DNA of 64,000 bases from assembly GCA_964607485.1 (NCBI GenBank), contig CAZSKP010000001.1, positions 96,001 to 160,000 of the forward strand, written 5' to 3'. Both the position numbers and the translations under genes were made by a program. This stretch comes from an uncultured bacterium (GTDB taxonomy: Bacteria > Abyssobacteria > SURF-5). A model generated the notes under the pieces. That model had not been told where the DNA came from and made no database searches. It saw only the letters and a program-made list of their open reading frames with translations. Below are positions 29,273 through 46,186 of the stretch, one piece after another (the first letter of the stretch is position 1; the number at the start of each line of letters is the position of its first letter).

Positions 29273-29349
29273 TTCGGGAAAGGTATTCCGTACCTCCTAA
29301 AATAACAACAAACGGGAGTCCCGCGTGCCAGTCGGAATCCTTTCCCGAA
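29273..29349 (+). ncRNA. Candidate structured non-coding element, copy 1
   Basis: Closing stem TTCGGGAAAGG/CCTTTCCCGAA, ACCTCCT motif, 19-nt core identical to 46148-46166, followed by a T-run. Confidence 0.55.
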
Positions 29350-29403
29350 TTTTTTGTTTTTTGTCAGGGAGTGGCAAAGGAAGAAGAGAGATAGGGACAA
29401 GCG

Positions 29404-29432
29404 GCGGCCCGAGATGCGGGCCGCTCTTTTTT
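29404..29432 (+). terminator. Intrinsic terminator
   Basis: GCGGCCCG-AGATG-CGGGCCGC followed by TCTTTTTT. Confidence 0.7.
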
Positions 29433-29952
29433 ATTTCAAGCGCGACGTCTCGAGGTAGCGCCGGGGCAGCGTCTGGTAGAGCTCGGTCGCGAACGTCCAC
29501 AGTTGCTCCTGCTCGGGAGTCACGTCGCCCACGATTTTTCCCGGAACCCCCATCACGATCTTCTTGGCCGGCACCTGCATCCTCGGAGGCACGACACAGC
29601 CGCTGCCGATGATGCAGCCGTCTCCGATGTCGGCGAAATCCTGTATGACCGCGTTCATGCCCACGAGCACGTGCTCGTGTAATATGACACCGTGCAGCAC
29701 CGAGCCGTGGCCGACGTGACTGTTCGGGCCCAGTCGCACGGTGAAATCGGGCCGGGCGTGGATGATGCAGTTGTCCTGCACGTTCGAGCCGTCGCCCACC
29801 TCGATGTCGCACCAGTCGGCCCTCAGCCGCGCGCCGGGTCCGATAAAGCAGTTTTTCCCGATCTTCACTCCTCCGATGAGCGTGGCCTCCGGATGAACAA
29901 ACGAACCGTCGCCAACGTCCGGCGTCTTTCCCTCGAATTCGTATATGGGCAT
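29431..29952 (-). CDS. Gamma carbonic anhydrase family protein
   Basis: Hexapeptide repeats, LRAD, SNVQDNCIIH, VGHGSVLHG. Confidence 0.92.
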   Translation of the reverse strand: MPIYEFEGKTPDVGDGSFVHPEATLIGGVKIGKNCFIGPGARLRADWCDIEVGDGSNVQDNCIIHARPDFTVRLGPNSHVGHGSVLHGVILHEHVLVGMNAVIQDFADIGDGCIIGSGCVVPPRMQVPAKKIVMGVPGKIVGDVTPEQEQLWTFATELYQTLPRRYLETSRLK

Positions 29953-29979
29953 GGACTTTTCCTTTCGATGAAAAGGGCG

Positions 29980-30165
29980 CAGGTCTAGAGGGCGTGTTGC
30001 CAAAACCATTAGGGGTCATTGCGAGGGAGGGTCAAAAACCCGACCGAAGCAATCTCGGAGACGTTCTCTCCACATTATCGGGATTGCTTCGTCGCCTTGC
30101 TCCTCGCAATGACGAGTCAGATAACAATGTGAGAAGCCATTTGGGCAACACGCCTTCTAGACCTG
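29980..30165. mobile_element. MITE-like element with terminal inverted repeats and an internal REP/RPE-like palindrome
   Basis: CAGGTCTAGAGGGCGTGTTGCC at left, GGCAACACGCCTTCTAGACCTG at right; inner GTCATTGCGAGG..GAAGCAATC..GATTGCTTC..CCTCGCAATGAC (30015-30113). Confidence 0.7.
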
Positions 30166-30183
30166 ACCCCCTCGCCGCTCGCG

Positions 30184-30891
30184 TTACGTCAGCTTGTACT
30201 CCTCGCCCGGGCTGAGGGTGACGACCTTTACGTCGGGCGCTTTCTCTTTCGCCAGCTTCACGAAGCCGCCCGCGTCGGGCTCCAGTATGGGGAACGTCTG
30301 ATAGTGCATCGGAATGACGGCCTTGGGCTTGAGCAGCGTGAGCGCGTGCGCCGCCTGGTACGGGTCCATCGTGAAACAGCTCCCGACAGGCAAGAGCGCG
30401 AGGTCGAGCTTGTACATCTCGCCCAGCGTCGCCATCGTGCCAAAGATGCCCGTGTCGCCCGCGTGATAAATCCTCTTGCCGTTCTCCAGCGTGACGATGA
30501 AGCCGGACGGGTTGCCCGTCGCCGACGAGTGGAACGCCTGCGTCATCGTCACCTTGATGCCGTCGAGTGTGGCCGTGCCGCCGATGTTCATCCCGAAGCC
30601 GCCGTTGACGACCTGCTCCGGCGGGATGCCCATCTCGCCCTGCAGCTTGGCCATCGTTTCGACGAGCCCGACGAGCGTCGCCTTCGTGCTCTGCGCTATC
30701 TCGACCGCCTGGCCCATGTGGTCGAAATGGTCGTGCGTGATGAGGATGTAGTCGATGTCCTTGACATCCGAGAGCGGCGTGACGCACGAGGGGTTGCCCT
30801 CGAACCATGGATCGATGAGTATCTTCTTTCCGTTCGCGCTCGTTATCTCGAAATTGGCGTGTCCGTGCCACTTCACGATTACGTCGCCCAT
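30184..30891 (-). CDS. MBL-fold metal-dependent hydrolase (UPF0173-like)
   Basis: WHGHA, IDPW, THDHFDH, AFHSS, YHAGDT, PMHY. Confidence 0.92.
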   Translation of the reverse strand: MGDVIVKWHGHANFEITSANGKKILIDPWFEGNPSCVTPLSDVKDIDYILITHDHFDHMGQAVEIAQSTKATLVGLVETMAKLQGEMGIPPEQVVNGGFGMNIGGTATLDGIKVTMTQAFHSSATGNPSGFIVTLENGKRIYHAGDTGIFGTMATLGEMYKLDLALLPVGSCFTMDPYQAAHALTLLKPKAVIPMHYQTFPILEPDAGGFVKLAKEKAPDVKVVTLSPGEEYKLT

Positions 30892-31031
30892 TTCAAACCT
30901 CCTGTGTTTTCAAACCGACGATTGTGCTTGGAACCATCTGAGGAGACAAAGCCGAGGACAGGCGCAATTATAACAGAGCGAGATGGTGAATTCAAAGCAG
31001 GGTTGCAGAACCACAGACTGGACGAGTTAAG

Positions 31032-32183
31032 TATACAACTAGCCTTCTTCCCAAACACTAACAGGATCTGGTAGAGTGCTTGGTTGGAACGAAGCGGAGG
31101 CGTAGCCGTAGCGGAGTTCCAACCGGCGCGTGAGCCAGGGGAAGGAGGAACAGATGACGGTAGCGGAGAAGAAGGTCGTTCGACAGCGGTTGAGCGTGCT
31201 CGAGCTTTCCGAGGCGCTCGGCAACGTCTCGGAGGCGTGCCGCAGGAGGGGAATCTCACGGACGCAGTTCTACGAGTACAAGCGTCGGTTTCAAACCCAC
31301 GGGATCGCGGGCCTGAAGGACCTGCCGCCGATCCACAAGACGCATCCGCAGACCACGCCGCCCGAGGTCGTGGAGCAGATACTTTCCCTCTCGCTTTCCA
31401 ATCCAATGTGGGGCTGTGTGCGCTTGAGCAATCAGCTCAGGCTCGTGGGTATCTCCGTCTCCAGTCCGACGATCCAGAACATTCTGATCAAGCACGAGAT
31501 GGGCTCGCGCTACCAGCGGCTTCTCAAGCTCGAAGAGAGCGCCGTGAAAGAGAAGAGCGAACTCACGCCCGAGCAGGTGAGGGCGATCGAGAAGGCCAAT
31601 CCCTGCTTTAAGGAGCGTCACGTGGAAAGCGCGCGTCCGGGCGAACTGTTGAGCCAGGACACGTTCTTTGTGGGTCAGCTGAAGGGCGTGGGCAAGGTAT
31701 ATCTGCAGGCCGTGGTCGAGACCTTCGGCAGCTATGCGTTCGGCTACCTGCATACGGGCAAGCTTCCCGAGCATGCGGCGGCGGTGCTTCACAACGACGT
31801 GCTCCCGCAGTACGAGCAGTGGGAGATCGAGGTGGGGGCCGTTCTGACTGACAACGGCCGGGAATACTGCGGCACGGAGCATCATCCGTACGAGCTCTAC
31901 CTTGCCCTGAATGACATCGAGCACAGGACGACGAAGGTGAAGCGGCCACAGACAAACGGGTTTGTTGAACGGTTCAACCGGACCGCGCTCGATGAGTTCT
32001 TCCGAAAGGCCTTCCGTGAGAAACTCTATGAGTCAGTGAAATCCTTGCAGAAAGACTTCGACAGGTGGCTGAAACACTACAACGAGGAGCGCTCCCGCCA
32101 GGGCTATCGCAACATGGGCAAGCGGTCTCTGGACACGATCAAGGAATACATCAACTCTGTACGGAAAGAAGGCTAGTCTTACA
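31032..32183 (+). mobile_element. IS481-family insertion sequence
   Basis: Imperfect terminal IRs (TATACAACTAGCCTTCTT vs reverse complement TGTAAGACTAGCCTTCTT); AGTTAAG directly repeated at 31025-31031 and 32184-32190. Confidence 0.88.
31154..32176 (+). CDS. IS481 family DDE transposase
   Basis: HTH NVSEACRRRGISRTQFY; QDT, TDNGREY, PQTNGFVERFN; RBS GGAGG before ATG 31154. Confidence 0.95.
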   Translation: MTVAEKKVVRQRLSVLELSEALGNVSEACRRRGISRTQFYEYKRRFQTHGIAGLKDLPPIHKTHPQTTPPEVVEQILSLSLSNPMWGCVRLSNQLRLVGISVSSPTIQNILIKHEMGSRYQRLLKLEESAVKEKSELTPEQVRAIEKANPCFKERHVESARPGELLSQDTFFVGQLKGVGKVYLQAVVETFGSYAFGYLHTGKLPEHAAAVLHNDVLPQYEQWEIEVGAVLTDNGREYCGTEHHPYELYLALNDIEHRTTKVKRPQTNGFVERFNRTALDEFFRKAFREKLYESVKSLQKDFDRWLKHYNEERSRQGYRNMGKRSLDTIKEYINSVRKEG

Positions 32184-32320
32184 AGTTAAGAAACTGGCCC
32201 GAATAGACTGGAAAGATTGACAATAACGATCTTGCGTGATATATTTTGCAGCAAAGTACATATTTTTGGAGTTCTTATCTTTCCGATAATGTTTGATGGA
32301 TTGCTTTCAGGAGATTGCAT

Positions 32321-32893
32321 ATGTCTTCGATAGATAACGAAAAGACTAACGCTCTTGAAGTAATATTGAAGGAATATGAGACCGTACGTCAAGAAGCCAT
32401 GGATGCAATTGGTAATAGAAATCAAGTTTTATCGTTTGGACTGGCAACTATTGGAATTATCTTCGCCGCGGCTATTAGTTCCAAGGACATCTTAGGGAAT
32501 ATTAGGTTCGTTCAAATCGTTTTTTGTGGAGTGATACCAGTGATCAGCCTCCTTGTCTCTGTGGTCTGGTTTGGCGAGGTCAACCGCATGAACCGTGCCA
32601 GTGTGTATATAAAGACTCAGATTGAACCGAGAATAGATTCGATATTTGAAAAGGGGGAATACAAGAGACTTCTGAATTGGGAAAACTGGCAACGAGAAAC
32701 CAAAACTCAATTAGCATATCCTTATATCGCTGCCACCTTATTGTTTATTCTGATAGCTGGCTCTTCGCCGGTGGCGGGCCTCATGGCAGCTAATGTCGGA
32801 ATTTGTAAGTATCCCCAGTATGTAGTGATTCCATGGTTAATCACTGGCCTCGTAGGTATCGGCATCATGCAACGCGCCCGCAAGTTTGGCTAG
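32321..32893 (+). CDS. Low-GC multi-TM hypothetical protein
   Basis: EYETVRQE helix then about four hydrophobic segments; AGGAG RBS; AT-rich. Confidence 0.7.
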   Translation: MSSIDNEKTNALEVILKEYETVRQEAMDAIGNRNQVLSFGLATIGIIFAAAISSKDILGNIRFVQIVFCGVIPVISLLVSVVWFGEVNRMNRASVYIKTQIEPRIDSIFEKGEYKRLLNWENWQRETKTQLAYPYIAATLLFILIAGSSPVAGLMAANVGICKYPQYVVIPWLITGLVGIGIMQRARKFG

Positions 32894-33151
32894 CATCCAA
32901 CATTCCTCCTTGCGATTTGTCTGAAACTGGAGCAATAGTGGAGTACTGTCTCGCAGATCACGGCGAGGCATCTTTACACATCTTTTCGTCGAAGCTGCCG
33001 TGAATTCCATGTTTCAGCCCCATCTGCCTCAATCTGTGTTCATCCCTAGCCGGTTTCTGAATCTGTGCGACCCTTGCAATCCGTGGTTTCAAGAATGCCG
33101 TATGATTTGTGTAATTCGTGTGATCCGTGGTCTGAGGGAGGCTCTGTCAGA

Positions 33152-33769
33152 CTAGTGTTTGCGGACGATGTCTTTGACTTTCATCAGGCGGGTGAGGTTG
33201 CCGCGTTCGAGTTCGCTCAGCTTGGTGCTGATGTACCGTATGGTTTCCTCGAGGCTGGGAATCAGAATGTGCTCGAGCGCGTTCACGCGGCGGCGGGTAC
33301 GCTCGAGCTCGCCCGCGAGCATCCACACGTGTTTTTCCAACTGGGCCATGAGCACCATGCGCGGGATCAAAAGCGTGAGGATTTTCAGCGACCTGTCCAG
33401 GTCGCCGTCGGTGTCGAGGTATCCGTAGGCAAACTCGCCCGTCACACGGCTGTCGAAGTAGGGCACGCGCAGGTTCATGATGGGGCCGATCCTGCTTGTC
33501 AGCTCGACCTTCTTTTCCGAGAACGTCAACGCCTCTTCCATCTCCGGCTGAAACGAATCGAGCCGCGCCGAAAAGAACGAGCGGAAAGCGACGGCTAATT
33601 CTTCTTCCACAAGCTCGCGCGACTTTCTGGCTTCCTGCACGAGCGCCATGAACTGGCGCATCAACTCCTCCTGCTTATCCTTGAGCAGCTTGTGACCGCG
33701 CCGGGCCAGTTGCAGCCTGCGCCGCAGCTTGAGCAGCTCCATGCGGTTGGGGTTGACTCGGAGGATCAT
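33152..33769 (-). CDS. ntpD: V/A-type ATP synthase subunit D
   Basis: NPNRMELL, RGHKLLKDK, TRRRVNALEH. Confidence 0.96.
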   Translation of the reverse strand: MILRVNPNRMELLKLRRRLQLARRGHKLLKDKQEELMRQFMALVQEARKSRELVEEELAVAFRSFFSARLDSFQPEMEEALTFSEKKVELTSRIGPIMNLRVPYFDSRVTGEFAYGYLDTDGDLDRSLKILTLLIPRMVLMAQLEKHVWMLAGELERTRRRVNALEHILIPSLEETIRYISTKLSELERGNLTRLMKVKDIVRKH

Positions 33770-33777
33770 GCGCGCTT

Positions 33778-35196
33778 CTAACTCTCGGTTTTGCCGCCCT
33801 CGGATTCAGTCGCCTTTGCGGGGACTTCTTCGGGATAGTACTTGTCGATGTATTCCTGGCGGATTCGTTTCAGTTCGGTCTTCGGCAGGAGCGCGAGCAG
33901 CCGCCAGCCGAGCTCGATGGTTTCCTCGATCGTCCGGTTCTCGTCCTGACCCTGCCTGACAAACTTGTCCTCGAACACGTCGGCGAATTTGAAGAACGAC
34001 TTGTCTTCCTCGCTGAGCGCCGCCTCGCCCAGTATCACGGCCAGTTCCTGAACCTCGATGCCGCGGGCATAGGCGGCGAAGAGCTGATTAGACACGTCGG
34101 CGTGGTCCTCGCGCGTCTTCCCCTTGCCGATTCCCTTGTCCCGCAGCCGCGACAGCGAGGGCAGCACGTTGATAGGTGGGTAGATGCCCTTTCGGTGGAG
34201 CGAGCGGTCGAGGATTATCTGGCCCTCAGTGATGTATCCCGTGAGGTCGGGTATGGGATGCGTCTTATCGTCCTCTGGCATCGAGATGACGGGAATCTGC
34301 GTTATCGAGCCGGTGCTCGTCTTCAGTCGGCCTGCGCGTTCGTACACGGTCGAAAGGTCGGTGTAAAGGTAGCCGGGATACCCTCGCCGGCCGGGCACCT
34401 CCTTGCGCGCGGCCGAGATCTCACGCAGGGCTTCGCAGTAGTTGGTCATGTCGGTGAGGATAACGAGCACGTGCATGTTGAGGTCGAAGGCGAGATACTC
34501 GGCGGCGGTGAGCGCCATGCGCGGAGTGGCTATCCGCTCGATGGCCGGGTCGTCGGCGAGGTTGACAAACAGCACCGCGCGGTCTATTGCGCCCGTTCGT
34601 TTGAAGTCGGAGATGAAATAGTCGGCCTCCTCGAACGTGATTCCCATCGCGCCGAACACGACGGCGAACTGTTCGCCGGTGCCCCTGACTGTTGCCTGGC
34701 GCGCTATCTGCGCGGCAAGCTCCGGATGCGGCAGTCCGAATCCGGAAAAAATCGGCAGCTTCTGGCCGCGCACGAGCGTGTTGAGGCCGTCGATGGCCGA
34801 GATGCCTGTCTGTATGAATTCCGAAGGATACGCCCGCGCGTACGGGTTGATGGGGTTGCCGTTGATGTTCAGCCGCTTTTCGGGAATGACGGCGGGGCCG
34901 TCGTCTATCGGCCTGCCCATGCCGTCGAACACGCGGCCGAGCACGTCGGGCGAGACGCCCAGCTCGAGCCCGCGTCCGAGGAAGCGGACCTTGCAGTTGA
35001 CGACGTTCACGCCCGTCGCTCCCTCGAACAATTGGACGAGCGCCGTGTCGCCCGAGACCTCGAGCGTCTTGCCCCGGCGGATTTCGCCCCCGGGCAGCTC
35101 GAGCTCGACGAGCTCATCGTATTTCACGCCGGAGGTCTCGCCGACGAGAACCAGCGGACCGACGATTTCGCGGATTGTGCGGTATTCTTTGACCAT
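33778..35196 (-). CDS. ntpB: V/A-type ATP synthase subunit B
   Basis: [39 protein letters not shown]. Confidence 0.98.
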
Positions 35197-35198
35197 GC

Positions 35199-36977
35199 TC
35201 AGCCCTCTTCCTCGGCCTTCGTGGAAAGCGTTTTCACCTGCTCCTCGGCGCGCGCCCTGAGCTCGTCCAGTTTCCCAAGCTCCTGTTCACTCGTGTAACG
35301 CATGCGGCCGATCTCTTCTCTTGCGGGCAGCTTCCCGACTTCATCTATCGATACGCCCTGCTCCAGCGCCTCGGCCGCCGCGCGATGGAAGTGCATGATG
35401 ATTTTCAGCATTCTGTACTGCTTCGAAAACGAGGCGTAGCTGTCGATTTCGTGGAACGCGTTCTGGTGCAGAAAATCTTCGCGGATGGAGCGTGCAGTCT
35501 CGAGCACGAGCCGGTCGCTGGGCGACAGGGCATCGAGTCCGACGAGGCGTGCGATTTCCTTGAGCTCCGATTCCTTCTGCAGGAGCGCCATCGACTCCAA
35601 TCTCAGCGCGGTCCAGTCGGCCGCCACATCTTTTTCGAAGAACTCGCGCAGGTTGTCGTGATAGAGCGAATAGCTCGTGAGCCAGTTGATGGCCGGGAAG
35701 TGGCGCTCGTAGGCGAGTTTGTCCTCGAGGCTCCAGAACACCTTGACGACCTTGAGCGTGGCTTGGACGACGGGGTCGGAAAGGTCGCCGCCGGGAGGCG
35801 AGACGGCCCCGATGGCGCTGACAGCGCCGACGCGTTTGTCGGAGCCGAGGCACACGACTCTGCCGGCCCGCTCGTAATACTCGGCGATGCGGGTGGGCAG
35901 ATATGCGGGGTAGCCCTCTTCGCCGGGCATTTCTTCGAGCCGGCCCGACATCTCGCGCAGCGCCTCGGCCCAGCGCGAAGTCGAGTCGGCCATGATGGCG
36001 ACGCTGTAGCCCATGTCGCGGAAGTATTCGGCCATCGTGATGCCCGTGTACATCGAGGCCTCGCGAGCTGCGACGGGCATGTTCGAGGTGTTGGCCACAA
36101 GGATGGTGCGTTTCATCAGGGGCTCGCCGGAGCGGGGGTCCTTGAGTTCCGGGAATTCGAGTAGCACGTCGGTCATCTCGTTTCCGCGCTCTCCGCATCC
36201 GACGAAGACGATAATCTCGGCGTCGGCCCACTTGGCAAGCTGATGCTGAACGACGGTCTTCCCGGCTCCGAACGGTCCCGGCACGCAGGCCGTGCCGCCC
36301 TTGCCTATGGGGAACAGGGCGTCGATCACGCGCTGGCCCGTTATGAGCGGCACTATCGGCATGAGCTTTTCCTTGTAGGGCCGGAGCTTGCGCACGGGCC
36401 ATCTCTGCATCAGGGTGAGCTCGTGCGTTTTTTCTCCGTCGCGCAGTTCGGCCACGACGTCGGTGACGGTGAACTGCCCCGATTCGATGCGCGCGACCTC
36501 GCCCTTGATGCCGGGCGGAACCATTATGCGGTGCTCGACGAGAGTCGTCTCCTGGACGGTGCCGATGATGTCGCCTTCGATCACGTTGTCGCCGACCTTG
36601 ACGGTCGGACGGAAATCCCATTTCTTTTCACGGTCCAGGCCGGGGGCATAGATGCCGCGCGTGATCTGGTTGCCGGCGAGGTCCATAATCCTGTCGAGCG
36701 GACGCTGGACGCCGTCATAGATCGCCTCTATCATTCCCGGGCCGAGTTCGACGCTGAGCGGCTGGCCCGTCGTCTCGACCGGCTCGCCCGGGCCGAGCCC
36801 CTGCGTGTCCTCGTACACCTGGATGGACGCCTTGTCGCCGCGGAGCTCGATTATCTCGCCGACGAGATTCTTTTCGCTGACGCGGACGACGTCGTACATC
36901 TTCGCGTTGTACATGCCCTCGGCGACGACGAGCGGGCCCGAAACCTTTATTATCGTCCCCCTTGGTTCCTCGTTCAT
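35199..36977 (-). CDS. ntpA: V/A-type ATP synthase subunit A
   Basis: [29 protein letters not shown]. Confidence 0.98.
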
Positions 36978-37032
36978 TCGGCTGTCTCCAATTTCCGGAC
37001 GGTTCTCGTTATCCTTAAACGGTTATGGATAA

Positions 37033-37341
37033 TCAGATAAATTCTGCGCCCATCGCCTTTCGGACGGAGTGGCGTATCATCCCGGTGGCAATTCCGCGGC
37101 TTCCCTTTACCGACGGTATGATTGCGAATGTAGGTGTCGATTCCTCGGCAAACCCGTCGATTCTCTCCCTCGCCCCTTCATACACGTCTTCGGTCACGAA
37201 AATTATTTTGAATTGCATCTGCGAAACTTCGGCCACGAGCCGGGGGAGGGACGCGTGTTCGTCCGCAAAGAACAAGTCGGCTCCGAACGCTTTGAACGGC
37301 CAGATGGTGTCCCGCTCGCCTATGAAAGCGATGTCAGACAT
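37033..37341 (-). CDS. V/A-type ATP synthase subunit F
   Basis: IAFIGERDT..F.AFG, IIFVTE, KAMGAE; operon position. Confidence 0.9.
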   Translation of the reverse strand: MSDIAFIGERDTIWPFKAFGADLFFADEHASLPRLVAEVSQMQFKIIFVTEDVYEGARERIDGFAEESTPTFAIIPSVKGSRGIATGMIRHSVRKAMGAEFI

Positions 37342-38335
37342 ACAGATACCTCAAACGTTCTTCTATTCCCGCACGCGCCATGCCGATGAGCTTGCACCTG
37401 ATGATTGTGCGAATGAGTTTGGCCTCGGCTTCCTTGCGCAGGAGATAATAAATCAGAGGAGCGATGCTGAAGAGCATCATTCGCATGTTTGAAAACTGGT
37501 GGAGGATGAAGTTGTCGGCGGCGATCTCCATCCGCCAGAACGACTTCTCCTCGGGCCACATCCTGAGCCCCTGGGAGACTATGTGATGTTCGTATTGAGT
37601 CTTTGCCAGATGGTCGAGAAAATGGCCCAACTGGGTGTCGAGATGCCGGAAGAAGAAATCCAGCGTGTAGCTGCCTCCGGGGATGAAGTATCGTTCGAAC
37701 ACTTCCCGCTCTTCCGCCAACTCGTTCACCCGGAAGAAAGTCTTTATGTTCGCCAGGTTGATGTACTCCCGAAAAAGTTTTATGACAATCCTGTTTCGAA
37801 GCTTCAGAGCGTTCTGCAGGAGGTAGGTCCACATCGAGCGGTCGCAGGTGTAGCTGATGGCGTACAGCGCGCCCGTCCTGTCGTGTTCCTCCAGGGCGTT
37901 GAGGGCGGTATCCCGTATGTGTTCGGGGACGAAGCGGTAGGCGCTCTCTCCGACCGCGGCGCTCAGTTTGTCGATGCCGTAGGTTCCGAGGTCCATTATG
38001 GAATCCTCGTACGGAAGGCCGGTCAGCTTGGATTTCAGCATGGCCTTCAGATTATGAAAATCGTAGCGTACGCGGAAGAGGCCGATCAGGGTCTTGTCGG
38101 GGCAGATCTTGCCGAGGAGGTCGTGCGTTTTCTGAAGTTCCCGAATCAAGCCCTTCTCCAGTTGGGCGGGGCCCTCCACACCGGCAAAGCTCTCGGCATA
38201 CGCGGTTTCGCCCAGGATGCGGAGTATTTCATCCGGCTCCGCCGCGAGCATCCTGGCGGCGAACGCCCGGTCGAGCAGCTTGGTGCTGAGCGCGTTTATT
38301 CGGGCGACCGCGTATGTGTAACGATAATCATCCAT
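37334..38335 (-). CDS. ntpC: V/A-type ATP synthase subunit C
   Basis: YAVARI, YDFHNLK..LK, ERLR.LYV. Confidence 0.9.
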   Translation of the reverse strand: MDDYRYTYAVARINALSTKLLDRAFAARMLAAEPDEILRILGETAYAESFAGVEGPAQLEKGLIRELQKTHDLLGKICPDKTLIGLFRVRYDFHNLKAMLKSKLTGLPYEDSIMDLGTYGIDKLSAAVGESAYRFVPEHIRDTALNALEEHDRTGALYAISYTCDRSMWTYLLQNALKLRNRIVIKLFREYINLANIKTFFRVNELAEEREVFERYFIPGGSYTLDFFFRHLDTQLGHFLDHLAKTQYEHHIVSQGLRMWPEEKSFWRMEIAADNFILHQFSNMRMMLFSIAPLIYYLLRKEAEAKLIRTIIRCKLIGMARAGIEERLRYLYV

Positions 38336-38936
38336 CCCGTTCGCCTTTGCCGAACAAGATATTGGCTATCAGCGTCTCCAACCTGTCGCGCTGGGAGGCC
38401 ACGAGGCTTTCCAGCGTGAGGTTGGTTTCCTTGTTGCCTTCCCGCAGGATGAATCCTCCCGAGAACTCTCCGCTCTCATCGCTCAAGCGCAGGCGTCCCT
38501 TCTGCGAGCCGAGCTCGTCGTTGAGGCTCTTGACGAATTCCGGTGTGAACAGGTTTCTGTGCTCCGAGGGAGGAATGATTTCCTCCGAGCCCGATTCCAC
38601 CGCGCTCAGGATGAGGGGTTTCAAGAACGCCCGATGTTCCTCGGGAGGAAGATTTCTGATTTTGTCTTCGGCCTTTGCGAATGCGTCCTCGATGAGTCTC
38701 TTCTTTTCCCTCAGCGCATCTTTTCGCTCGTCGAGTCCGGCCAGTACCCTTACTCGGTCCGCGTGTTCCTTCGCGCGCGCCTTTGCTTTCTGCATCATTT
38801 CGGAGCGGAGCTCATCCGCCTGCTTGCGGGCCTTTTCGCGGATGGCTTCGGCCTCGGAGCGAGCCAGCGACAGGAGCGAGTCGGCCTCCGATTGCGCATC
38901 CTCGCCGATTTTCTTGATGATGTCTTCTAACGCCAT
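38328..38936 (-). CDS. ntpE: V/A-type ATP synthase subunit E
   Basis: N-terminal coiled coil, GGFIL, ILF terminus. Confidence 0.9.
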   Translation of the reverse strand: MALEDIIKKIGEDAQSEADSLLSLARSEAEAIREKARKQADELRSEMMQKAKARAKEHADRVRVLAGLDERKDALREKKRLIEDAFAKAEDKIRNLPPEEHRAFLKPLILSAVESGSEEIIPPSEHRNLFTPEFVKSLNDELGSQKGRLRLSDESGEFSGGFILREGNKETNLTLESLVASQRDRLETLIANILFGKGERDG

Positions 38937-39014
38937 ATGCTAACGCGACCTCTTTTCCACGCTACGCCGTCGATGGAGGCTTCGGCGCGTCTTAGACTGC
39001 GCACGCAACAGGGA

Positions 39015-39512
<498 letters not shown>

Positions 39513-41528
39513 CTACCGATTGGAATCTGACAACGCCTGCCCCATATCCGACCGAACGACCGTGTACTCTCTCACATCGGCGTACGGCATAAAAGGCTCG
39601 CCGCCGCCCGTGAAGAACTTGGAGAAGAACTCAAGGTATTGCAGCCTGAGCGTGTGAACAAACGCCCCCAAGCAGTTTATCGCCAGGTTGAACGCGTGCC
39701 CGAAAACGAGGACCAGTCCCGCGAGCACATACCCTATGCCGTAGGGGATGCCCGTGACCAGACCGGCAATGTCGTTGATGGTTATCGCGAGAAACGTCGT
39801 GGACAGTCCGAGCGCCATCAGCCGCGCGTAGGAAAGCACATCGCCGAAGAAACCCAACGCGTCGCGAGCCGTCTGCAACAGGCCCATCAAGGGAACCAGC
39901 AGCACGTTTCCGACGCGGCGGCCTCGCGCGAGAACGAGCGGAACGACGATAATCAACGCGGATGTTCCTCCGATTGAGAGGAGCGTTTCGTCCACCGCGC
40001 CGCCGAAGAGGTACTTGTAGAGAACGGGGGCGACGCAAATCAGCACGAGTATCCAGAGCCCCTGTTCACCCAGTCCGCTCACTATGTCGCCTTCGCGGAA
40101 ATCCCTCACCATTCTGATGCCGAGCCCGAACAGCACCTGCACCAGGCCGAGCAGGAAAGAGATATAAAGGAAGAGCAGCACTTCTTTGGTTGGGTCGAAC
40201 AGCACGACTTTACTGAATATCGCTGGCAGGCTCTTCAGGTCGATTGCGAATATTCCGCCCGTGAGCACGCCGACAACGATGCTCGAGAATCCTCCCAGAA
40301 TCAAAATCTGCAGCAGCTTTCGGGCTCCCCCGTGAATCTCAAATTTCTTCAACGCCAGATAGCCGCCGATGGCCAGGACCAGCCCGTAGCCGGCCTCTCC
40401 GAGGCAGACGCCGAAGAAGAGGACGAAGAACGGGGCAAAGAGAGGCGTGGGGTCGAACTCGGTGTATTGAGGGCGGCCATAGAGCTCGGTGATGAGCGCG
40501 AACGGTTTTACGGCGGGACGGTTTTCGAGCAGGATGGGAACGCGGTCGTCGGGCGCAGGGTCGGAGCACCTCATTTCGACGACCTCGGTCACTCTGCTGA
40601 GCCGCCGCCTGAGCGTCTCCTCCTGGCTGGCCACGATCCATCCTCTGATGAGGAAGGTGCGCGAGGTGAACAGGAAGTTGTGCTGGACCTGCAGCGCCCG
40701 GAGTTCCTGGGAATAGTGGTCGTTGAGCAGGAGGAACTTGTCCACGGAGGACACCGACTCGTCCGCGACGCGTTCTCGGATCTGTCGATTGCGCTCCTTC
40801 AATTCGTCGGTCTGCTCTTTCAACTGCTTGAGCGCCTCGGCCGGGGTGCCTGTCAGTCCCATGAAGCTCACCGAGCGCCACCCGTGTTTTCTGAGGATGG
40901 ACGCTATGGAGTCCTCGATTTCCTTGGAATAGATGAGGACCATCGACACCGAGGTGCGCGAGCGCTCGACAATTTCGATGTGAAGCAGGGGAGAGGCCTC
41001 GGATAGTTCGTCGGTCATCGGATTGAAAGCGCGGGCGTTGCAGATTCCGAGCGAGGCGCGAGTGGTTCGCGTGTCGTGAATAAGCTCGAGCGGGCACTCC
41101 AGGCGGAGCCAGTGGGAGACGTCCGCCATGAGGTTTTCCTTCTTGTCCATCTGGCTTTCATTCTCATCGAGCTCACTTTCAACTGAAGTGCAGTCTCCGT
41201 AGAACTCCTCCATCTCGAAGTTGGCAATGCAGTCCTCAACCTCCTGGGGCGTGAAGACGGGTTTGCCCTTGAGAAGGGTTTGAGCGAGAGAACGTTTGGG
41301 AGCGAACCGTTCCAGAAACTGCAGGCAGTGCTGAATCTGCGCGAGCTTCTGCTTGACTTCGGAGAGGGAGTTCTCGAGAAAAGAGGGGAGTTCGGTCTGT
41401 GACTCGGGGAACAGTTCCCTTACGTCGGAGATATGTACGGCGCCGAGCCCACGCAGCGTCGCCAGTATCTCCTCGCGACACTCGGCGTGCGCTATGAGCT
41501 CCAGTCTTCTGACCTTGCTTACGGCCAT
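39513..41528 (-). CDS. ntpI: V/A-type ATP synthase subunit I
   Basis: P.Y.EFDPT, DVLSYARLMALGL, HTLRLQYLEFFSKFF. Confidence 0.96.
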   Translation of the reverse strand: MAVSKVRRLELIAHAECREEILATLRGLGAVHISDVRELFPESQTELPSFLENSLSEVKQKLAQIQHCLQFLERFAPKRSLAQTLLKGKPVFTPQEVEDCIANFEMEEFYGDCTSVESELDENESQMDKKENLMADVSHWLRLECPLELIHDTRTTRASLGICNARAFNPMTDELSEASPLLHIEIVERSRTSVSMVLIYSKEIEDSIASILRKHGWRSVSFMGLTGTPAEALKQLKEQTDELKERNRQIRERVADESVSSVDKFLLLNDHYSQELRALQVQHNFLFTSRTFLIRGWIVASQEETLRRRLSRVTEVVEMRCSDPAPDDRVPILLENRPAVKPFALITELYGRPQYTEFDPTPLFAPFFVLFFGVCLGEAGYGLVLAIGGYLALKKFEIHGGARKLLQILILGGFSSIVVGVLTGGIFAIDLKSLPAIFSKVVLFDPTKEVLLFLYISFLLGLVQVLFGLGIRMVRDFREGDIVSGLGEQGLWILVLICVAPVLYKYLFGGAVDETLLSIGGTSALIIVVPLVLARGRRVGNVLLVPLMGLLQTARDALGFFGDVLSYARLMALGLSTTFLAITINDIAGLVTGIPYGIGYVLAGLVLVFGHAFNLAINCLGAFVHTLRLQYLEFFSKFFTGGGEPFMPYADVREYTVVRSDMGQALSDSNR

Positions 41529-41839
41529 TCGGGATTGCCAGCGATGGAATCGATTATCAGCTTGACCGCACGCTCCATGTTATTTTGCGCGGATGCCCGC
41601 AGAGATTCGAGCGCCTTCTGATTCTCTTTTCTTGATTCCAGCGCTTGCCTCTGAGCTTCGGACTCCGCATCGGCTATCATCTGCAATTCGGTCCGACGGC
41701 ACTCTTCCTTTGAGCTTTCCAGGAGGTTTCGTCCCTCCTCGCGGGCCAGGCGGATAAGCTCATCTGCATCCTGCTTCGCCTTTGCAATCAGCCTCTCGCC
41801 GTCGCCTTCGACTTGCCTAATTTCGTCCAGAAGTTCCAT
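41519..41839 (-). CDS. V/A-type ATP synthase subunit G/H (peripheral stalk)
   Basis: ~106-aa charged coiled coil, first gene of operon, ends AVKLII. Confidence 0.75.
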   Translation of the reverse strand: MELLDEIRQVEGDGERLIAKAKQDADELIRLAREEGRNLLESSKEECRRTELQMIADAESEAQRQALESRKENQKALESLRASAQNNMERAVKLIIDSIAGNPEWP

Positions 41840-41901
41840 GTTTTTCGAGGTCTTTCGATGAGGGGGAGACGATGCGAATCGAGCCATTAACCTACCAAAG
41901 A

Positions 41902-41930
41902 ATGGTAACATAGGTGGTGAGGGATGTCAA
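41902..41930 (-). promoter_or_regulatory. Sigma70-type promoter of ATPase operon
   Basis: TTGACA-N17-TACCAT with TG extension. Confidence 0.65.
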
Positions 41931-42274
41931 GGAAAAACACAACTTGTTGGGCTTTGGCGAGGCTGGCACCCGCTATATAGGCCTATCAAGGGGAAAGCTC
42001 TGCGAGACACAGGGGAAAGCGACGGGTCAGGAGCGTGCCTTTTTCCACTCTTCTATTCTTGTGCGGAACTCCGAGTAGCACGCCGGGCAATACGTGTGGG
42101 AGACGAGCTTGGCGGAAAGGTCGGCCCTGCTGGGTTCTTTCCAGCCTTTTGGACCTCGGATCCTATTGCAACTGCAACATTGTACCGTCATTTCTCTCTA
42201 CCCTCCACTTTAGATTATCGGCGTGAACAGGGAGAAACTTTAGCCCGATTGGCGTTGCCCGCTTGTGCAATGGA

Positions 42275-42306
42275 GATTGCTTCGTCGCCCTGCTTCTCGC
42301 AATGTC
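42275..42306. repeat. Partial copy of the REP/RPE-like repeat at 30082-30113
   Basis: GATTGCTTCGTCGCCCTGCTTCTCGCAATGTC vs GATTGCTTCGTCGCCTTGCTCCTCGCAATGAC (3 mismatches in 32). Confidence 0.75.
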
Positions 42307-42414
42307 GAAAGAGAGAAACACAATGACGAAAGAGAGAGACGATGTCGCGTGAGAGCGTGTTCGGGAAACAGCCCAGGAGAGCGGAGAAACCGATTTCTTT
42401 GTCTCACCCACGCA

Positions 42415-42633
42415 TCAGAGCGCGATGGGTTCGCATACGTTGGCGGCCTTGGAGGCGGCGCGTCCGCAGATGTGGCAGACGAACTGCGCGTTCTTGGCCA
42501 GCCTGCCCACTTTGTCCATTTGACGCTTGCTCGTCAGCTCGCAAAGATGGCTCGCGTGACCACCGTGCGTCTTGGCAAGCTTGTGTTCCGGCACCGTCAT
42601 CTTCTTGGCTTTTTTCGCTTTTGCCTTTGCCAT
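42415..42633 (-). CDS. Small basic Cys/His-rich protein
   Basis: HLC..FVCHICGRAA..NVCEP; GAAGGGAG RBS. Confidence 0.75.
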   Translation of the reverse strand: MAKAKAKKAKKMTVPEHKLAKTHGGHASHLCELTSKRQMDKVGRLAKNAQFVCHICGRAASKAANVCEPIAL

Positions 42634-42785
42634 ATCGAATCTCCCTTCACAAATGACCACATAAGAAAAGTCTTAAGAATAGTATTTACGCTTTGCTGAT
42701 GAATGGCAAGGAGGCGGACGCCGAGTTGTCCTATTCCTCAAATCTTTCGGAAGGCGTCCGAGCGGGGGTAAGAGGAAACCGCTAT

Positions 42786-43838
42786 TCAGGAAAGACCTGT
42801 CGCTGACGCAATCTTGGCGAGCTCTTCCTCGAACTGTTGGTGGAGCCGCTTCTTATCCATGTCGGGAAGAAAACTCGCTCTGACTCCGTTAAGGCACAGG
42901 GTCTTGATCTCCGACCAGTCGAGGCCGAGTTCTTCGCCGCACAGCTTGTACTCTTTGGTCAAGGAAGTTCCGAACATGGCGGGGTCGTCGCTGTTCAAGG
43001 TGACCAGCAGTCCGCGTCGGAGGAATTCGGGAAGCGGATGGTCCGCGAGCGAACGGATCGCGCCGGTCTCCACGTTGCTCGTGAGACACATGTCCACGGC
43101 GGTACCTCGGACGCGCAAATGCTCGAGCAGTTGCTCGTCTCCGCGCGCGCCGAGACCGTGGTCGATGCGTTCGGCCCCGAGCGCTTTCACCGCGCCCCAC
43201 ACGCTGGAGGGCCCGGTGACCTCGCCCGCGTGAGCGACCAGGTGGAGTCCCTCTCTTCTGGCCCACGCGAACTGTTCCGCGAATATTTCGGGCGAATAGT
43301 GAATCTCGTCTCCTCCCAATCCCAACGCGATCACGCCGTTCTTCTGGTGACGCGCGGCCTCGCGCGCCGTCTGCCACGCGTGCTCGGTCCCGAACTGACG
43401 GCCGATGTCGAAAATGAATCGCACATCGATGTCGCCGTTCTTGCAGACGCTTCTCGCGCCCGCCGCGATTCCCGGCATGACCTCGTCCATCGAGAGCCCG
43501 TTGAGCCTGTGCGCGGTCGGAGGGATGAGTATTTCCGCATACCTGACATTTTGAGCGCGAAGATTTTCGAGGACATCACAGCACGCCATCTCGAAGTCCT
43601 CGGCGCTCCGCAGGCACGTGCATCGCATGCGGTAGTCGTCGAGAAACCCGATCAGGTGCCCGTAATGAACACGGGTGGGATTTCTGCCTTCGTTCGAACT
43701 ACGAAGCTCCACCCCGTTCTTGTGCGCGAGTTTCTCGAGCGTCTCGGAGGAGATCGAACCTTCCAGATGCACGTGGAGCTCCACCTTCGGCATCCGTTCT
43801 ATCGCCGCTCCGAGGTCTGCCTGCCGAGTTGCCTCCAT
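42786..43838 (-). CDS. add: Adenosine/adenine deaminase
   Basis: PKVELHVHLEG, HAGE, RIDHG, NSDDP. Confidence 0.92.
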   Translation of the reverse strand: MEATRQADLGAAIERMPKVELHVHLEGSISSETLEKLAHKNGVELRSSNEGRNPTRVHYGHLIGFLDDYRMRCTCLRSAEDFEMACCDVLENLRAQNVRYAEILIPPTAHRLNGLSMDEVMPGIAAGARSVCKNGDIDVRFIFDIGRQFGTEHAWQTAREAARHQKNGVIALGLGGDEIHYSPEIFAEQFAWARREGLHLVAHAGEVTGPSSVWGAVKALGAERIDHGLGARGDEQLLEHLRVRGTAVDMCLTSNVETGAIRSLADHPLPEFLRRGLLVTLNSDDPAMFGTSLTKEYKLCGEELGLDWSEIKTLCLNGVRASFLPDMDKKRLHQQFEEELAKIASATGLS

Positions 43839-44022
43839 GCGTCCTCCCTGAGGGTCTCCCTGAATCTATTCATTTATACCATGTTTCCGGTTTGTCCGCA
43901 AACTGCTTGTGCGCTCGTATTGCAAACCGGGGGCCGGTACCAATATAATGAGTGGGCTTTTTGGAGGCAAGCGGACCGGCCGGCCTGCTTGCGATTCTAA
44001 GTGACCTTCCGGGGAGTCGTGG

Positions 44023-45171
44023 ATGCGACGCGTGGATGAAAAGCTCAACGTGCTTATTGTGTTCGGAACGAGGCCGGAGGCCATCAAGCTCGCGCCCGTG
44101 ATACATGAGGCGAAGAAGCGGGCATGGGCGCGGCCGGTGGTGTGCGTCACCGCGCAGCACAGGGAGATGCTCGACCAGATGCTCGGAGTGTTCGGCATCA
44201 GGCCCGACATAGACCTCGGCATAATGACCCGCCGGCAGAGCCTGCACTCGCTCGCGTCCAGAATTCTCACGCGGATGCGCACCGTGCTGAAAGAGCGAAG
44301 CCCGCATCTTGTCGTCGTGCAGGGTGACACGACCACCACCTTCGCCGCGAGCCTGGCGGCCTTCTATGAGAAAATTCCGGTCGCCCACGTGGAGGCGGGA
44401 TTGAGAACGTTCAGGAAGGATGAGCCGTTTCCCGAAGAGGCAAACCGCAGGCTTGCCGATTCGCTCGCCGACTTTCACTTCGCGGCCACCGACGGGAATC
44501 GTCTCAATCTCATCAGGGAAGGGGCGGACCCCGAGCGGATATTCGTCGTGGGAAACACCGTGGTGGACGCGCTGGGGCGCATCCTGCAAGAAAATCGAAA
44601 GAGAAAAACATTTCCCGGCCTGCCACGCATCGCGCCGGGAAAGAAAACGATAGCGGTGACGGCGCATCGCAGGGAAAGCTTCGGCGAGCCTCTGAGGAAT
44701 ATCTGCGAGGCGCTGAGGCGGATTTCCAAGCTGAACGACGACGTGGAAATAATATACCCCGTTCATCTGAACCCGAACGTTCTGCGTCCGGTCCGACGCC
44801 TTCTCGGCGGCGACAAGAACATTCATCTCCTGCCGCCGCTGGATTACGTGTCGTTCGTCGAGCTGCTCCGGCGGTCGTATCTCATACTCACCGATTCGGG
44901 CGGCATTCAAGAGGAGGCGCCCACGCTCAAGAAGCCGGTGGTCGTGATGCGCGAGGTGACCGAACGACCCGAGGGCGTGAGGGCCGGATTTGTGAAAGTC
45001 GCGGGGAGGAGCGTCGATGCCGTGGTGAGTGCGACGCAGGAGCTTCTCGACGACACATCGATTCACTCCCGCCTGCGGCATATTCCCAACCCATACGGAG
45101 ACGGACGCTCCGCGCGGAGAATCCTGAGCATAATCGGCCGACATCGCGCCTCGCTCCTCTCTCGCGGGTGA
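44023..45171 (+). CDS. wecB: UDP-N-acetylglucosamine 2-epimerase (non-hydrolysing)
   Basis: GTRPEAIK, QGDT, HVEAGLR, PFPEEANR, HRRES, TDSGGIQEE. Confidence 0.96.
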   Translation: MRRVDEKLNVLIVFGTRPEAIKLAPVIHEAKKRAWARPVVCVTAQHREMLDQMLGVFGIRPDIDLGIMTRRQSLHSLASRILTRMRTVLKERSPHLVVVQGDTTTTFAASLAAFYEKIPVAHVEAGLRTFRKDEPFPEEANRRLADSLADFHFAATDGNRLNLIREGADPERIFVVGNTVVDALGRILQENRKRKTFPGLPRIAPGKKTIAVTAHRRESFGEPLRNICEALRRISKLNDDVEIIYPVHLNPNVLRPVRRLLGGDKNIHLLPPLDYVSFVELLRRSYLILTDSGGIQEEAPTLKKPVVVMREVTERPEGVRAGFVKVAGRSVDAVVSATQELLDDTSIHSRLRHIPNPYGDGRSARRILSIIGRHRASLLSRG

Positions 45172-45323
45172 ATCGTTCCCCGACCTCTCCTGTTCTAAAT
45201 CAGACATGCCCCTGTGGAAAAGCCTACATCAATTGGGAATCCTCGTCTGTATCTGCAATGTGTGTTCAGCTATAACTTAAATGATAACAACCTCTTATGT
45301 GTGATGCTGCCAGATCAGGAAGA

Positions 45324-45340
45324 TTGGCAACCGTCTTGCT
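45324..45340 (+). promoter_or_regulatory. Sigma54-type promoter
   Basis: TTGGCAACCGTCTTGCT (GG-N10-GC) about 85 bp upstream of 45424. Confidence 0.55.
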
Positions 45341-45423
45341 CATTCAGACCGACGAAGTCTCGGGCAAACCGAGCAGCTGGAATGTGGCACGGTCGAGGTT
45401 GATCTGGGAAAGGAGTAAGACCG

Positions 45424-45987
45424 ATGAAAAGAACCATAGTATGGATGTTGGCCTTGGCGGCGGCATTGCCGTTGCTCTTCGCATCGGCCGGTTGGGCCGA
45501 GGAGGCCCATCACGGTACGAGCGCCGACACACCGAAGCACTGCGATATGGCCTCGTGTCCCCACAAGGGAATAACGGCGAAAATATTCGAAAACTATTTC
45601 GTGATTCGCGCCTCGCTTGCAGCCGATTCCCTCGAAGGTGTGCCGACGAGGGCGAAGGCGATTGCGGAGGCCGTAGAGCCGTTTTCGCAAGAATCCAATA
45701 AATGTATGGGTCGCCGAGAAGAGTCCAACATGCATGCCCTGATGTCGGAGATAGGCGCCGCGGCGAGAACGCTGGCTGAAAAAAACAACATCACCTCCGC
45801 CCGAGAGGAGTTCGGCGAGTTGAGCATGAAGATGTTTGCGTATCAGAAAAGCCACCTGGCGGAATCCGAGAGGGCGCATGTCTTTGCGTGTGACATGGCA
45901 AAGAAGATGTGGCTTCAGCAAACCGAGGAGCCGGGCAATCCGTATTTCGGCCCTGCGATGGCCAGATGCGGGCGCATGATTGAGTGA
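45424..45987 (+). CDS. Secreted DUF3347-like protein
   Basis: Signal peptide; AREEFGELS, CDMAKKMWLQ..NPYFG..MARCG. Confidence 0.8.
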   Translation: MKRTIVWMLALAAALPLLFASAGWAEEAHHGTSADTPKHCDMASCPHKGITAKIFENYFVIRASLAADSLEGVPTRAKAIAEAVEPFSQESNKCMGRREESNMHALMSEIGAAARTLAEKNNITSAREEFGELSMKMFAYQKSHLAESERAHVFACDMAKKMWLQQTEEPGNPYFGPAMARCGRMIE

Positions 45988-46112
45988 GCCTCAGCGTTCC
46001 GAAGGAGGGCCTGCGCCGGCCCGCAAAAAGGTGAAGCCTTAATGTGCGACGCAAATAACCGGGGGGAGGAGAAGATCATCGGAAGGACCTGAAGATTTCG
46101 TTCGAGGTACAT

Positions 46113-46186
46113 TTCGGGAAAGGCATCCACTCCTCCAAAAACAACCCAACGGGAGTCCCGCGTGCCCTTTGGAAGCCTTTCCCGAA
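46113..46186 (+). ncRNA. Candidate structured non-coding element, copy 2
   Basis: Same closing stem and AACGGGAGTCCCGCGTGCC core as copy 1; CTCCTCC motif. Confidence 0.55.

Follow-up and report, generated by a model that had tools for sequence, protein, structure and literature searches.

A previously uncatalogued structured RNA with the predicted anatomy of an intrinsic terminator in an uncultured bacterial lineage

The C-rich small RNAs (sRNAs) 6C and cuckoo are multicopy, structured molecules whose conserved C-rich motifs lie in hairpin loops and could pair with G-rich ribosome-binding sites, and their hosts may be without Hfq. The decoy sRNAs EutX and Rli55 carry the same binding module for an ANTAR regulator as the leaders with which they compete, and the raiA-type motifs are orphan structured noncoding RNAs that emerged from comparative genomics. 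In the HMP-PP (thiS motif) riboswitch, as far as the published description of that motif covers it, the aptamer is embedded in a 'classic terminator' and was spotted by its abnormally conserved loop (PMC6478431). Here we describe an RNA element that occurs twice in a 64,000-nt stretch of an uncultured bacterium (GTDB lineage Bacteria; Abyssobacteria; SURF-5), positions 96,001 to 160,000 of contig CAZSKP010000001.1 in assembly GCA_964607485.1; this whole stretch is called the window, and positions are counted from its first letter on the forward (+) strand. A first-pass annotation made from the letters of the window had singled out two ~75-nt copies and proposed a trans-acting RNA that exposes or hides an anti-Shine-Dalgarno (anti-SD) sequence or, failing that, a structured element of the 3' untranslated region (3'-UTR). 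We find that the element represents a new family whose general type is already familiar, that of terminator-based RNAs with a putative regulatory role or of sRNAs, and which, among the sequences searched, is confined to a small uncultured lineage.

A structured core shared by 20 copies

Alignment and folding placed copy 1 at 29273..29349 and copy 2 at 46113..46186, both on the + strand, and the two copies, their 11-bp closing stem and their identical 19-nt core were found exactly where the first-pass annotation had put them. The 5' strand of the closing stem, TTCGGGAAAGG, spans 29273-29283 and 46113-46123, and its complement, the 3' strand CCTTTCCCGAA, spans 29339-29349 and 46176-46186. The shared 19-mer (29311-29329 and 46148-46166) was confirmed in genome coordinates, and in a repeat search the two copies made up the longest direct repeat detected in the window (51 nt, 82% identity). 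With one mismatch at most, the closing-stem 11-mer occurs nine times in place of the 1.95 expected, a count reached in 0 of 100 shuffles. Across the 4.7-Mb assembly the exact 19-mer has two sites only; the third site carries three mismatches, and a reversed-pattern control (5 hits) matched equally well; the element is thus low-copy, at two copies in this genome. The CCUCC motif, the A/C-rich linker, the T-run behind copy 1 and its convergent neighbour were likewise as described. On the + strand both copies fold far more stably than their shuffles (copy 1, -30.0 kcal/mol, z -4.5; copy 2, -29.5 kcal/mol, z -4.0). The compensatory change reported in the extension of the stem is real, and two double changes that keep pairing distinguish the copies: at alignment pair 20-75 an A-U gives way to C-G, and at pair 25-70 a G-C gives way to A-U.

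The search for relatives made use of BLAST and of three covariance models, R1 (stem and sequence), R2 (with the inner helix P3) and R3 (the 5' domain of the type A copies described below). Against 41 genomes, BLAST with copy 1 as the query gave matches that were close to full length and 89-94% identical in six further genomes, from five other genera of the same family, and nothing convincing outside that family. R1 found 12 copies (E<=4e-8) in nine of the ten family genomes, at one or two per genome, the single genome without a match being 77% complete. The phylum comprises 11 species-level genomes, and its sole member outside the family gave no R1 match; in a 151-genome sample the nine genomes with matches all lay within the family, as compared with 0 of the 141 outside it. 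A metagenome scan that demanded the exact 13-mer core gave 15 loci, seven of which hold real copies by R1, eight copies in total, and brought the family to 20 copies (12 in genomes and 8 on metagenome contigs). A looser pattern run over GTDB contigs yielded at least 118 stretches; among the matches listed three were real by R1, and these appear to be family genomes already counted, two of them scoring the same bits as the copies of genome G007 (G numbers denote genomes, L numbers loci). Non-detection in other phyla rests on the 141-genome sample and the exact-core metagenome scan and is to be read as 'not found in those searched'. Viral contigs (exact-pattern scan) and plasmids (blastn with a 176-nt type A stretch) gave no matches. 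A 23-bit R1 match on contig 24 of G008 was discarded as, by eye, unlike the element, and R1 matches in G002 and G004 (E 0.1-0.4) and a short BLAST match on contig 165 of G007 were taken as chance.

Rfam 15 gave 0 matches at gathering score across the whole window, and at E<=10 the best scores for the two 3-kb loci, for positions 29090-29370 and for a metagenome locus with tandem copies were 14.6-18.1 bits, as compared with gathering scores of 47-111. Literature text searches, limited to the invariant core 13-mer and DUF3347, returned nothing relevant to the element. The element is a previously uncatalogued structured RNA family. That it matched no family recognised in the first-pass annotation was thus upheld by the Rfam comparison, and the covariance model and homologue search proposed there, once run, revealed covariation and the 20 copies.

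The core consists of a 17-bp stem, made up of helix P1 (11 bp), a bulge and helix P2 (6 bp), that encloses an apical domain of ~42 nt. In copy 1, P1 pairs 29273-29283 with 29339-29349, the bulged U is 29284 and P2 pairs 29285-29290 with 29333-29338; in copy 2, P1 pairs 46113-46124 with 46175-46186 and P2 pairs 46126-46129 with 46170-46173. When the 20 copies were aligned to the model, 90.4% of the cells of the stem and inner helix were paired. Eight of the 22 pairs change on both sides, relative to 3.7 in shuffles (0/500 reach 8), and seven of the 17 long-stem pairs do so; since the sequences are closely related, covariation tests overstate their independence, and the significance of this shuffle test is overstated for such kin. 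Sliding the 3' partner by one to three columns lowered pairing to 26-69%, and these slid controls, together with the number of distinct pair types, make the long stem secure.

The apical domain keeps a fixed order. A junction of 1-3 nt leads into a C/U tract (CCUCCU in type A; CUCCU at 29294-29298 in copy 1 and 46130-46136 in copy 2), which is followed by an A-rich stretch of 11-18 nt and variable sequence (29299-29313 in copy 1), an invariant GGGAG (29314-29318 and 46151-46155) and a 14-nt strand, UCCCGCGUGCCAGU (29319-29332 in copy 1, 46156-46169 in copy 2). This single strand is invariant over 11-14 nt and begins UCCCGCGUGCC; the 13 bases GAGUCCCGCGUGC, which extend over GGGAG and the single strand, are invariant in 11 genome copies and, of all 20 copies, retained in 17, and it is the stems that vary. 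Judged by this pattern, the tip is conserved beyond what termination would need. A small open reading frame (ORF) that starts at the invariant GUG after GGGAG (29325-29612) was rejected as a gene, as by eye neither frame nor peptide is kept among paralogues and one copy is without the GUG.

Two pairings compete within the tip. The suggestion that CTCC could pair with an internal GGAG held: the C/U tract can pair 5/5 with GGGAG in 15 of 18 distinct sequences, and in two variants both partners have changed, two contigs having CUCCA opposite UGGAG and one having AUCCC opposite GGGAU. The pairs of this inner helix were counted sequence by sequence, the R2 alignment having left the variant copies out of register; the register shifts from copy to copy, and shuffling of each sequence gave no significance (57-627 of 1000), since GGGAG readily finds a partner in any C/U-rich tract. 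The rival, a 4-bp hairpin CGGG/CCCG, draws on the same G's with 91% of cells paired and one double change, and the G-to-U change that the C/U:GGGAG helix compensates is exactly the one that breaks it. The pairings are mutually exclusive, and the minimum-energy fold given by ViennaRNA picks one in copy 1 and the other in copy 2. The tip may toggle between two states. The C/U tract sits 1-3 nt after P2 at the base of the inner helix, the loop proper being A-rich, and we conclude that the anti-SD-like tract does not lie permanently exposed in a loop. Display of CCUCC in a hairpin loop is not supported, as this motif can pair with GGGAG; the idea, in the first-pass annotation, of a switch that exposes or hides the tract is possibly right, because both exclusive pairings, the CUCCU:GGGAG helix and the CGGG/CCCG hairpin, are well kept. 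The heptamer ACCUCCU matches the 3' end of 16S ribosomal RNA as it is generally described.

A U-rich tract follows directly 3' of the 17-bp stem in 20/20 copies, with 4-7 U in the first eight bases. In copy 1 it reads TTTTTTGTTTTTT (29350..29362) and abuts the closing stem; in copy 2 it is the interrupted tail TCCTTATTTGC (46187..46197). In sequence, the core has the anatomy of an intrinsic (Rho-independent) terminator hairpin. We read the family on the + strand because of this tract, which lies 3' of the stem in all 20 copies, the frequent G-U pairs and the conserved promoter-like site upstream of type A. In hairpin Pb of the type A 5' domain, pair 47-82 is G-U in 12 of 15 sequences and pair 56-73 is U-G in 8 of 15; read on the other strand, such pairs would become A-C mismatches.

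Two genomic contexts

The copies form two classes, which their U tails separate cleanly. Type A, to which copy 1 belongs, comprises 12 copies, from 7 genomes of the family and 5 contigs of metagenomes, whose tails have 7 U in the first eight bases and a longest run of 6-7 in 12/12. Type B, to which copy 2 belongs, comprises eight copies at seven loci, all between co-directional genes, and the tails are interrupted in 8/8, with 4-7 U in the first eight bases and a longest run of 2-5. The 'unrelated' intergenic contexts of the first-pass annotation do differ but are not arbitrary, type A being syntenic and type B mostly associated with a DUF3347 operon.

From 5' to 3', type A presents a promoter-like site, a leader, a 5' domain, a short A-rich linker, the core and U6-7, all on the + strand. 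The sigma-70-like site upstream of copy 1 (29074..29102), a probable promoter on sequence grounds, consists of a -35 element TTGCCT (29074-29079), a 17-nt spacer, a TG (29094-29095) and a -10 element TAAGAT (29097-29102), with a predicted start near 29109. By eye, TTGnnT-17 nt-TAnAAT with the upstream TG stands at the matching place in 6/7 aligned type A orthologues, all but L005; a promoter consensus scan instead picked an overlapping site, TTGACG at 29080 to AACAAT at 29108. The leader that would follow (29109..29185, ~77 nt) has no sequence conservation among orthologues. A 31-codon ORF was seen by eye to start near the predicted start (ATG at 29107) and to end within the 5' domain (TAA at 29200-29202); as a conserved gene it was rejected, orthologues, L006 and L009 among them, being without it.

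The 80-nt 5' domain (29186..29264), defined from alignments and pair counts, is closed by an outer helix, Pa (29186-29196 with 29254-29264; 88% paired), within which lie an invariant G-rich strand (29207-29221) and hairpin Pb (29222-29231 with 29243-29252), which is 96% paired and shows double-sided changes at 4/10 pairs. In the RNAalifold prediction a portion of this G-rich strand (GUGGaCG, 29207-29221) is paired with 29254-29260, the 3' strand of Pa itself, which may represent an alternative fold of the 5' domain. Between genera, type A hardly varies over some 170 nt, paired regions and the G-rich strand included. Pairing between the conserved single strand of the core and the 5' domain was considered and rejected, as the RNAduplex partners differ between sequences and two contigs with near-identical 5' domains differ in the single strand. 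The 5' domain was never found without a core, 8/8 R3 matches lying directly upstream of one, and the core lacks a 5' domain in 4/8 type B copies, the other 4/8 carrying a recognisable one; the ~75-nt element is therefore the family's autonomous core. To that extent the ~75-nt unit of the first-pass annotation stands, but in copy 1 it is part of a larger, two-domain RNA with a promoter-like site: as read from the sequence, type A is a ~250-nt unit of which copy 1 is only the 3' third.

Copy 1 has no downstream gene on its own strand. Upstream lie a gene resembling the C-terminal domain of FlhB (28125-28424, + strand) and a small membrane-anchored ORF rich in Lys, Glu and Arg (28765-29043, + strand), and downstream a hexapeptide-repeat gene (gamma-carbonic-anhydrase/PaaY-like; 29431..30009, - strand) converges on the element. 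A second terminator-like hairpin with a T-run (29403..29435), between copy 1 and the convergent gene, may serve either transcript; its sequence is not kept in orthologues, which place other hairpins there. Among the 11 type A loci scanned for gene context (the G009 locus was left out), the FlhB-like gene lies upstream in six and the convergent hexapeptide-repeat gene downstream in seven; two of the remaining four end within ~150 nt of the element, and two have a co-directional FGE-sulfatase gene 180-240 nt downstream. In three genomes with no type A match (G001 contig 214, G002 contig 42 and G004 contig 91; L235-L237) the contig stops 204-770 nt past the FlhB-like gene, before or at the RNA site, and type A is hence found in 7/7 family genomes with the site assembled; the locus seems hard to assemble, as contigs break there. 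In the sister family the FlhB-like gene and 1.5 kb downstream of it are present at this syntenic flagellar locus, with no match to either model and no divergent copy. Identity of type A with 6S RNA or signal recognition particle (SRP) RNA was dismissed, as these were found on contig 21 (95.9 bits) and contig 6 (70 bits), respectively.

Copy 2 lies between a DUF3347 gene (45424..45987, + strand) and a class I S-adenosylmethionine (SAM)-dependent methyltransferase gene (46284..46898, + strand), which starts 97 nt after the copy and matches Methyltransf_11 (E 3.6e-24), with no NCBIfam model over its cut-off. The 3'-UTR alternative of the first-pass annotation came close to how copy 2 looks but missed the terminator nature of the core and the intra-operonic position of this copy. 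By eye, the last codons of the DUF3347 gene (GCGGGC, 45968-45973) can pair with GCCCGC (46019-46024). A DUF3347 gene is found upstream at 5/7 type B loci (this window, G001, G007 and two contigs), and a co-directional gene is found downstream at 7/7. Counted by copy, the downstream gene is a methyltransferase in five cases, a cytochrome c gene in one (one contig) and a GAF-HD gene in one, and one copy precedes a second, tandem copy. The methyltransferase gene follows the element in this window, G001 and G004 and, as its N-terminal codons suggest by eye, also follows the second copy on the tandem contig; in G007 a YHS-domain ORF comes first downstream and a methyltransferase second, and in G006 the element is flanked by a ParA-like gene and, downstream, the GAF-HD gene. 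By eye, the next start codon comes ~32 nt (G007) and ~40 nt (G006) after the stem, so that these downstream genes hardly have a promoter of their own.

The tandem metagenome contig (L185) carries two complete two-domain copies (947-1043 and 1280-1375, 333 nt apart) between a DUF3347 gene and an apparent methyltransferase gene, and the first of them has a divergent single strand, UCCUCUCGCGCC. On contig 94 of G006 (L198), genes for a methyltransferase (Methyltransf_25 type), a DUF3347 protein, a 113-aa ORF and a second methyltransferase (Methyltransf_11 type) abut without the RNA, and the RNA thus appears to be an optional insert within one transcription unit.

Some further features of these loci were noted in passing. 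In G003 and G009 a receiver-domain gene stands between the DUF3347 gene and a methyltransferase. The DUF3347 proteins encoded at 45424-45987, L162, L167, L185 and L187 share, by eye, a C-terminal stretch with two cysteines (approximately F-x-C-D-M-A-K-K ... N-P-Y-Y-G ... C-G) and weakly match the LIC13259/LIC11441 family of Leptospira. The last codons of the DUF3347 gene in G001 appear, again by eye, to build the outer helix of the RNA's 5' domain. Elsewhere in the window there is a second two-copy direct repeat (30077-30124 and 42270-42317; 48 nt, 81% identity, 12 kb apart), which contains an inverted repeat and has no relation to the element.

Weighing the candidate functions

The reading that we tentatively favour, while holding it to be somewhat short of an even chance, is that the element is a factor-responsive terminator module, which would act as a cis attenuator in type B and cap a stand-alone sRNA in type A. 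The apical domain would sense a trans-acting factor, be it a protein or a small ligand, and binding of that factor would tip the balance between a terminator stem that closes and one that does not. In type B, with its weakened U tract, attenuation of the genes downstream would be leaky and regulated; in type A the full-strength U tract and the 5' domain would belong to the end of a separately transcribed RNA of ~250 nt, which could bind the same factor as a decoy or partner. The analysis shows the family, its strand, helices and terminator anatomy, its two context classes and its absence from catalogues; transcription, termination and sensing, and the very identity of such a factor, are what we infer.

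A number of observations weigh against this proposal. No candidate RNA-binding regulator was found beside any copy. Within the loci no upstream duplicate of the stem strands was found, bar a non-conserved one at 28316-28326, and no fold that rivals P1 was established. The exception is an exact CCTTTCCCGAA 11-mer inside the FlhB-like ORF, 950 nt upstream of copy 1; as an antiterminator strand it was rejected, for orthologues do not keep it, and it is probably there by chance. In 7/11 type A loci, where the neighbour is convergent, there is no gene to attenuate, though type A is the better conserved class; with type A mostly in such a position, the common factor that would unite the two classes is an assumption. 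The genes downstream of type B (methyltransferase, YHS, cytochrome c, GAF-HD) form no single functional set, and hence no ligand can be named. Five DUF3347 loci of the family (G006, G003, G009, G004 and a second G001 contig) are without the RNA, and no divergent copy was found after other DUF3347 genes (27 loci searched with filters off, 22 weaker matches included), from which it follows that the operon does not need the RNA. The - strand folds of the two copies are lower in energy (-37.0 and -34.9), and as that strand folds at least equally well, folding energy cannot assign the strand. All family members come from one taxonomic family and its close metagenome relatives. Finally, promoter, termination and read-through are all deduced from sequence.

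The strongest challenge comes from a family of trans-acting base-pairing sRNAs, a reading that we hold to be doubtful. Type A would be an independent sRNA gene and type B would give sRNAs derived from the 3'-UTR, sharing the terminator of the DUF3347 messenger RNA; the C/U tract, CCUCC or in type A ACCUCCU, or else the single strand would be the seed, with the CUCCU:GGGAG helix hiding an anti-SD-like seed that the CGGG/CCCG hairpin frees. The promoter-like site, strong terminator and general lack of a co-directional gene at type A all fit, as do the presence of CCUCC in 12/12 type A and 5/8 type B copies, the conservation of both tip pairings, the choice of different pairings by the minimum-energy folds of the window copies and the position of the element directly after the DUF3347 stop codon at 5/7 type B loci. 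Base-pairing sRNAs usually conserve little outside their seed and terminator, however, and the ~170 nt of type A that are near-invariant across genera sit badly with this. No Hfq was found in the 97.5% complete genome, in which CsrA is present; sites complementary to the conserved single strand show no enrichment there (19 with <=2 mismatches as compared with 39 for the reversed control); and a CCUCC seed would fit nearly every ribosome-binding site, so that no testable target set results. The weak-terminator tails of type B, placed 32-100 nt before co-directional genes, likewise speak against it. The trans-acting anti-SD RNA of the first-pass annotation is thus not supported: copy 2, within its operon, fits cis attenuation better, Hfq was not found and complementary sites are not in excess.

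A special case of the factor-responsive module, and one that we consider unlikely, is a small-molecule riboswitch in which the apical domain is a terminator-embedded aptamer that would directly recognise a metabolite or ion and thereby govern read-through into methyltransferase, YHS or cytochrome genes, type A then being an 'orphan' riboswitch-like sRNA. The covarying stems, the invariant junction nucleotides and the tandem copies on one contig speak for it, 5/8 type B copies precede a SAM-dependent methyltransferase gene, and the neighbours include the metal-associated domains DUF3347 and YHS, whose general annotation may hint, loosely at most, at metal handling. The architecture also matches that of HMP-PP riboswitches in the published account of them, namely a terminator with an abnormally conserved tip (PMC6478431). 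Set against this are the loose gene association, the absence of the element from the orthologous operon in several relatives, the position of the best-conserved copies (type A) before no gene, the lack of a competing 'ON' fold among those examined, and a family of 20 copies from one taxonomic family, too few for the pattern of a ligand pocket. The most novel form of this reading, in our view improbable as well, is a new riboswitch class whose aptamer would sense a methyl-cycle metabolite or the ion of a metal or metalloid and gate a DUF3347-YHS-methyltransferase detoxification operon, with type A as a riboswitch-derived sRNA reporting the same signal in trans.

Both remaining explanations dispense with sensing. 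A constitutive terminator or 3'-end stability hairpin, duplicated within the lineage and kept because it is young or because its tip protects the 3' end, would account for the intrinsic-terminator anatomy of 20/20 copies, for the sporadic presence at the DUF3347 site and for a P1 sequence that is nearly identical among paralogues. We rate it as rather improbable: type A retains 89-94% identity across genera at a syntenic site, weakened U tracts specifically before co-directional genes would be unexpected, and the stems of paralogues have diverged by compensatory changes with the tip kept, which argues for purifying selection on the tip and not for youth. A mobile repeat of the repetitive extragenic palindrome (REP) or miniature inverted-repeat transposable element (MITE) kind, bounded by the 11-bp terminal inverted repeats, would explain those repeats and the sites that differ by genome (the DUF3347 site, the ParA/GAF-HD site in G006 and another in G004), and is very improbable indeed. 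The check for a REP or MITE that the first-pass annotation had called for found 1-2 copies per genome in nine genomes, a type A that is syntenic in 7/7 family genomes with the locus assembled, and no matches on viral contigs or plasmids; by eye no target duplications were seen in the flanks, and the 'inverted repeats' covary as an RNA helix, G-U pairs included.

Comparison with known systems

Were the factor-responsive terminator module to prove right, it would be a second, unrelated case of regulatory information held in the tip of an intrinsic terminator, and one in which a single module is an attenuator within operons and also forms the 3' end of an sRNA that stands alone. Elements embedded in terminators are routinely dismissed as 'just terminators'. 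The family offers an entry point to gene control in an uncultured phylum of 11 species-level genomes and touches a DUF3347-YHS-methyltransferase operon; whatever the mechanism, the covariance models and the 20-sequence alignment suffice to seed a new RNA family.

Type A is similar to the raiA-type RNAs in that ~170 nt form an intricate covarying structure with a predicted promoter and terminator and no obvious regulated gene; unlike them, it has no homology to any Rfam family, and its taxonomic range is very narrow, a single family in a phylum that counts 11 species genomes. The likeness to EutX and Rli55, by analogy only, lies in one module that occurs both at intra-operon terminators and in a separate sRNA, but the element is not the two-hexaloop ANTAR site, and the likeness comes without a partner protein. 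With 6C and cuckoo the element shares a multicopy, structured RNA, a conserved C-rich motif suited to pairing with ribosome-binding sites and a host that may lack Hfq; it differs in that the C/U tract is not in a hairpin loop and can pair with the invariant GGGAG, in having no Rfam match and in the intra-operonic position of type B.

As far as the description of the HMP-PP riboswitch extends, that motif and the element both consist of a strong stem followed by a U run, both have a tip conserved far past the needs of termination, and both are found in tandem with another terminator-type element and directly before genes (PMC6478431). They have no similarity in sequence or by covariance model, and the element matches no Rfam family. 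Relative to the same description, no competing ON fold was found for the element, whose two exclusive pairings lie inside its tip, and its downstream genes are loosely associated, in contrast to the exclusive association given for HMP-PP. Its tip is much larger, at ~42 nt with a helix of its own, and about half of its copies, those of type A, are predicted to be stand-alone RNAs.

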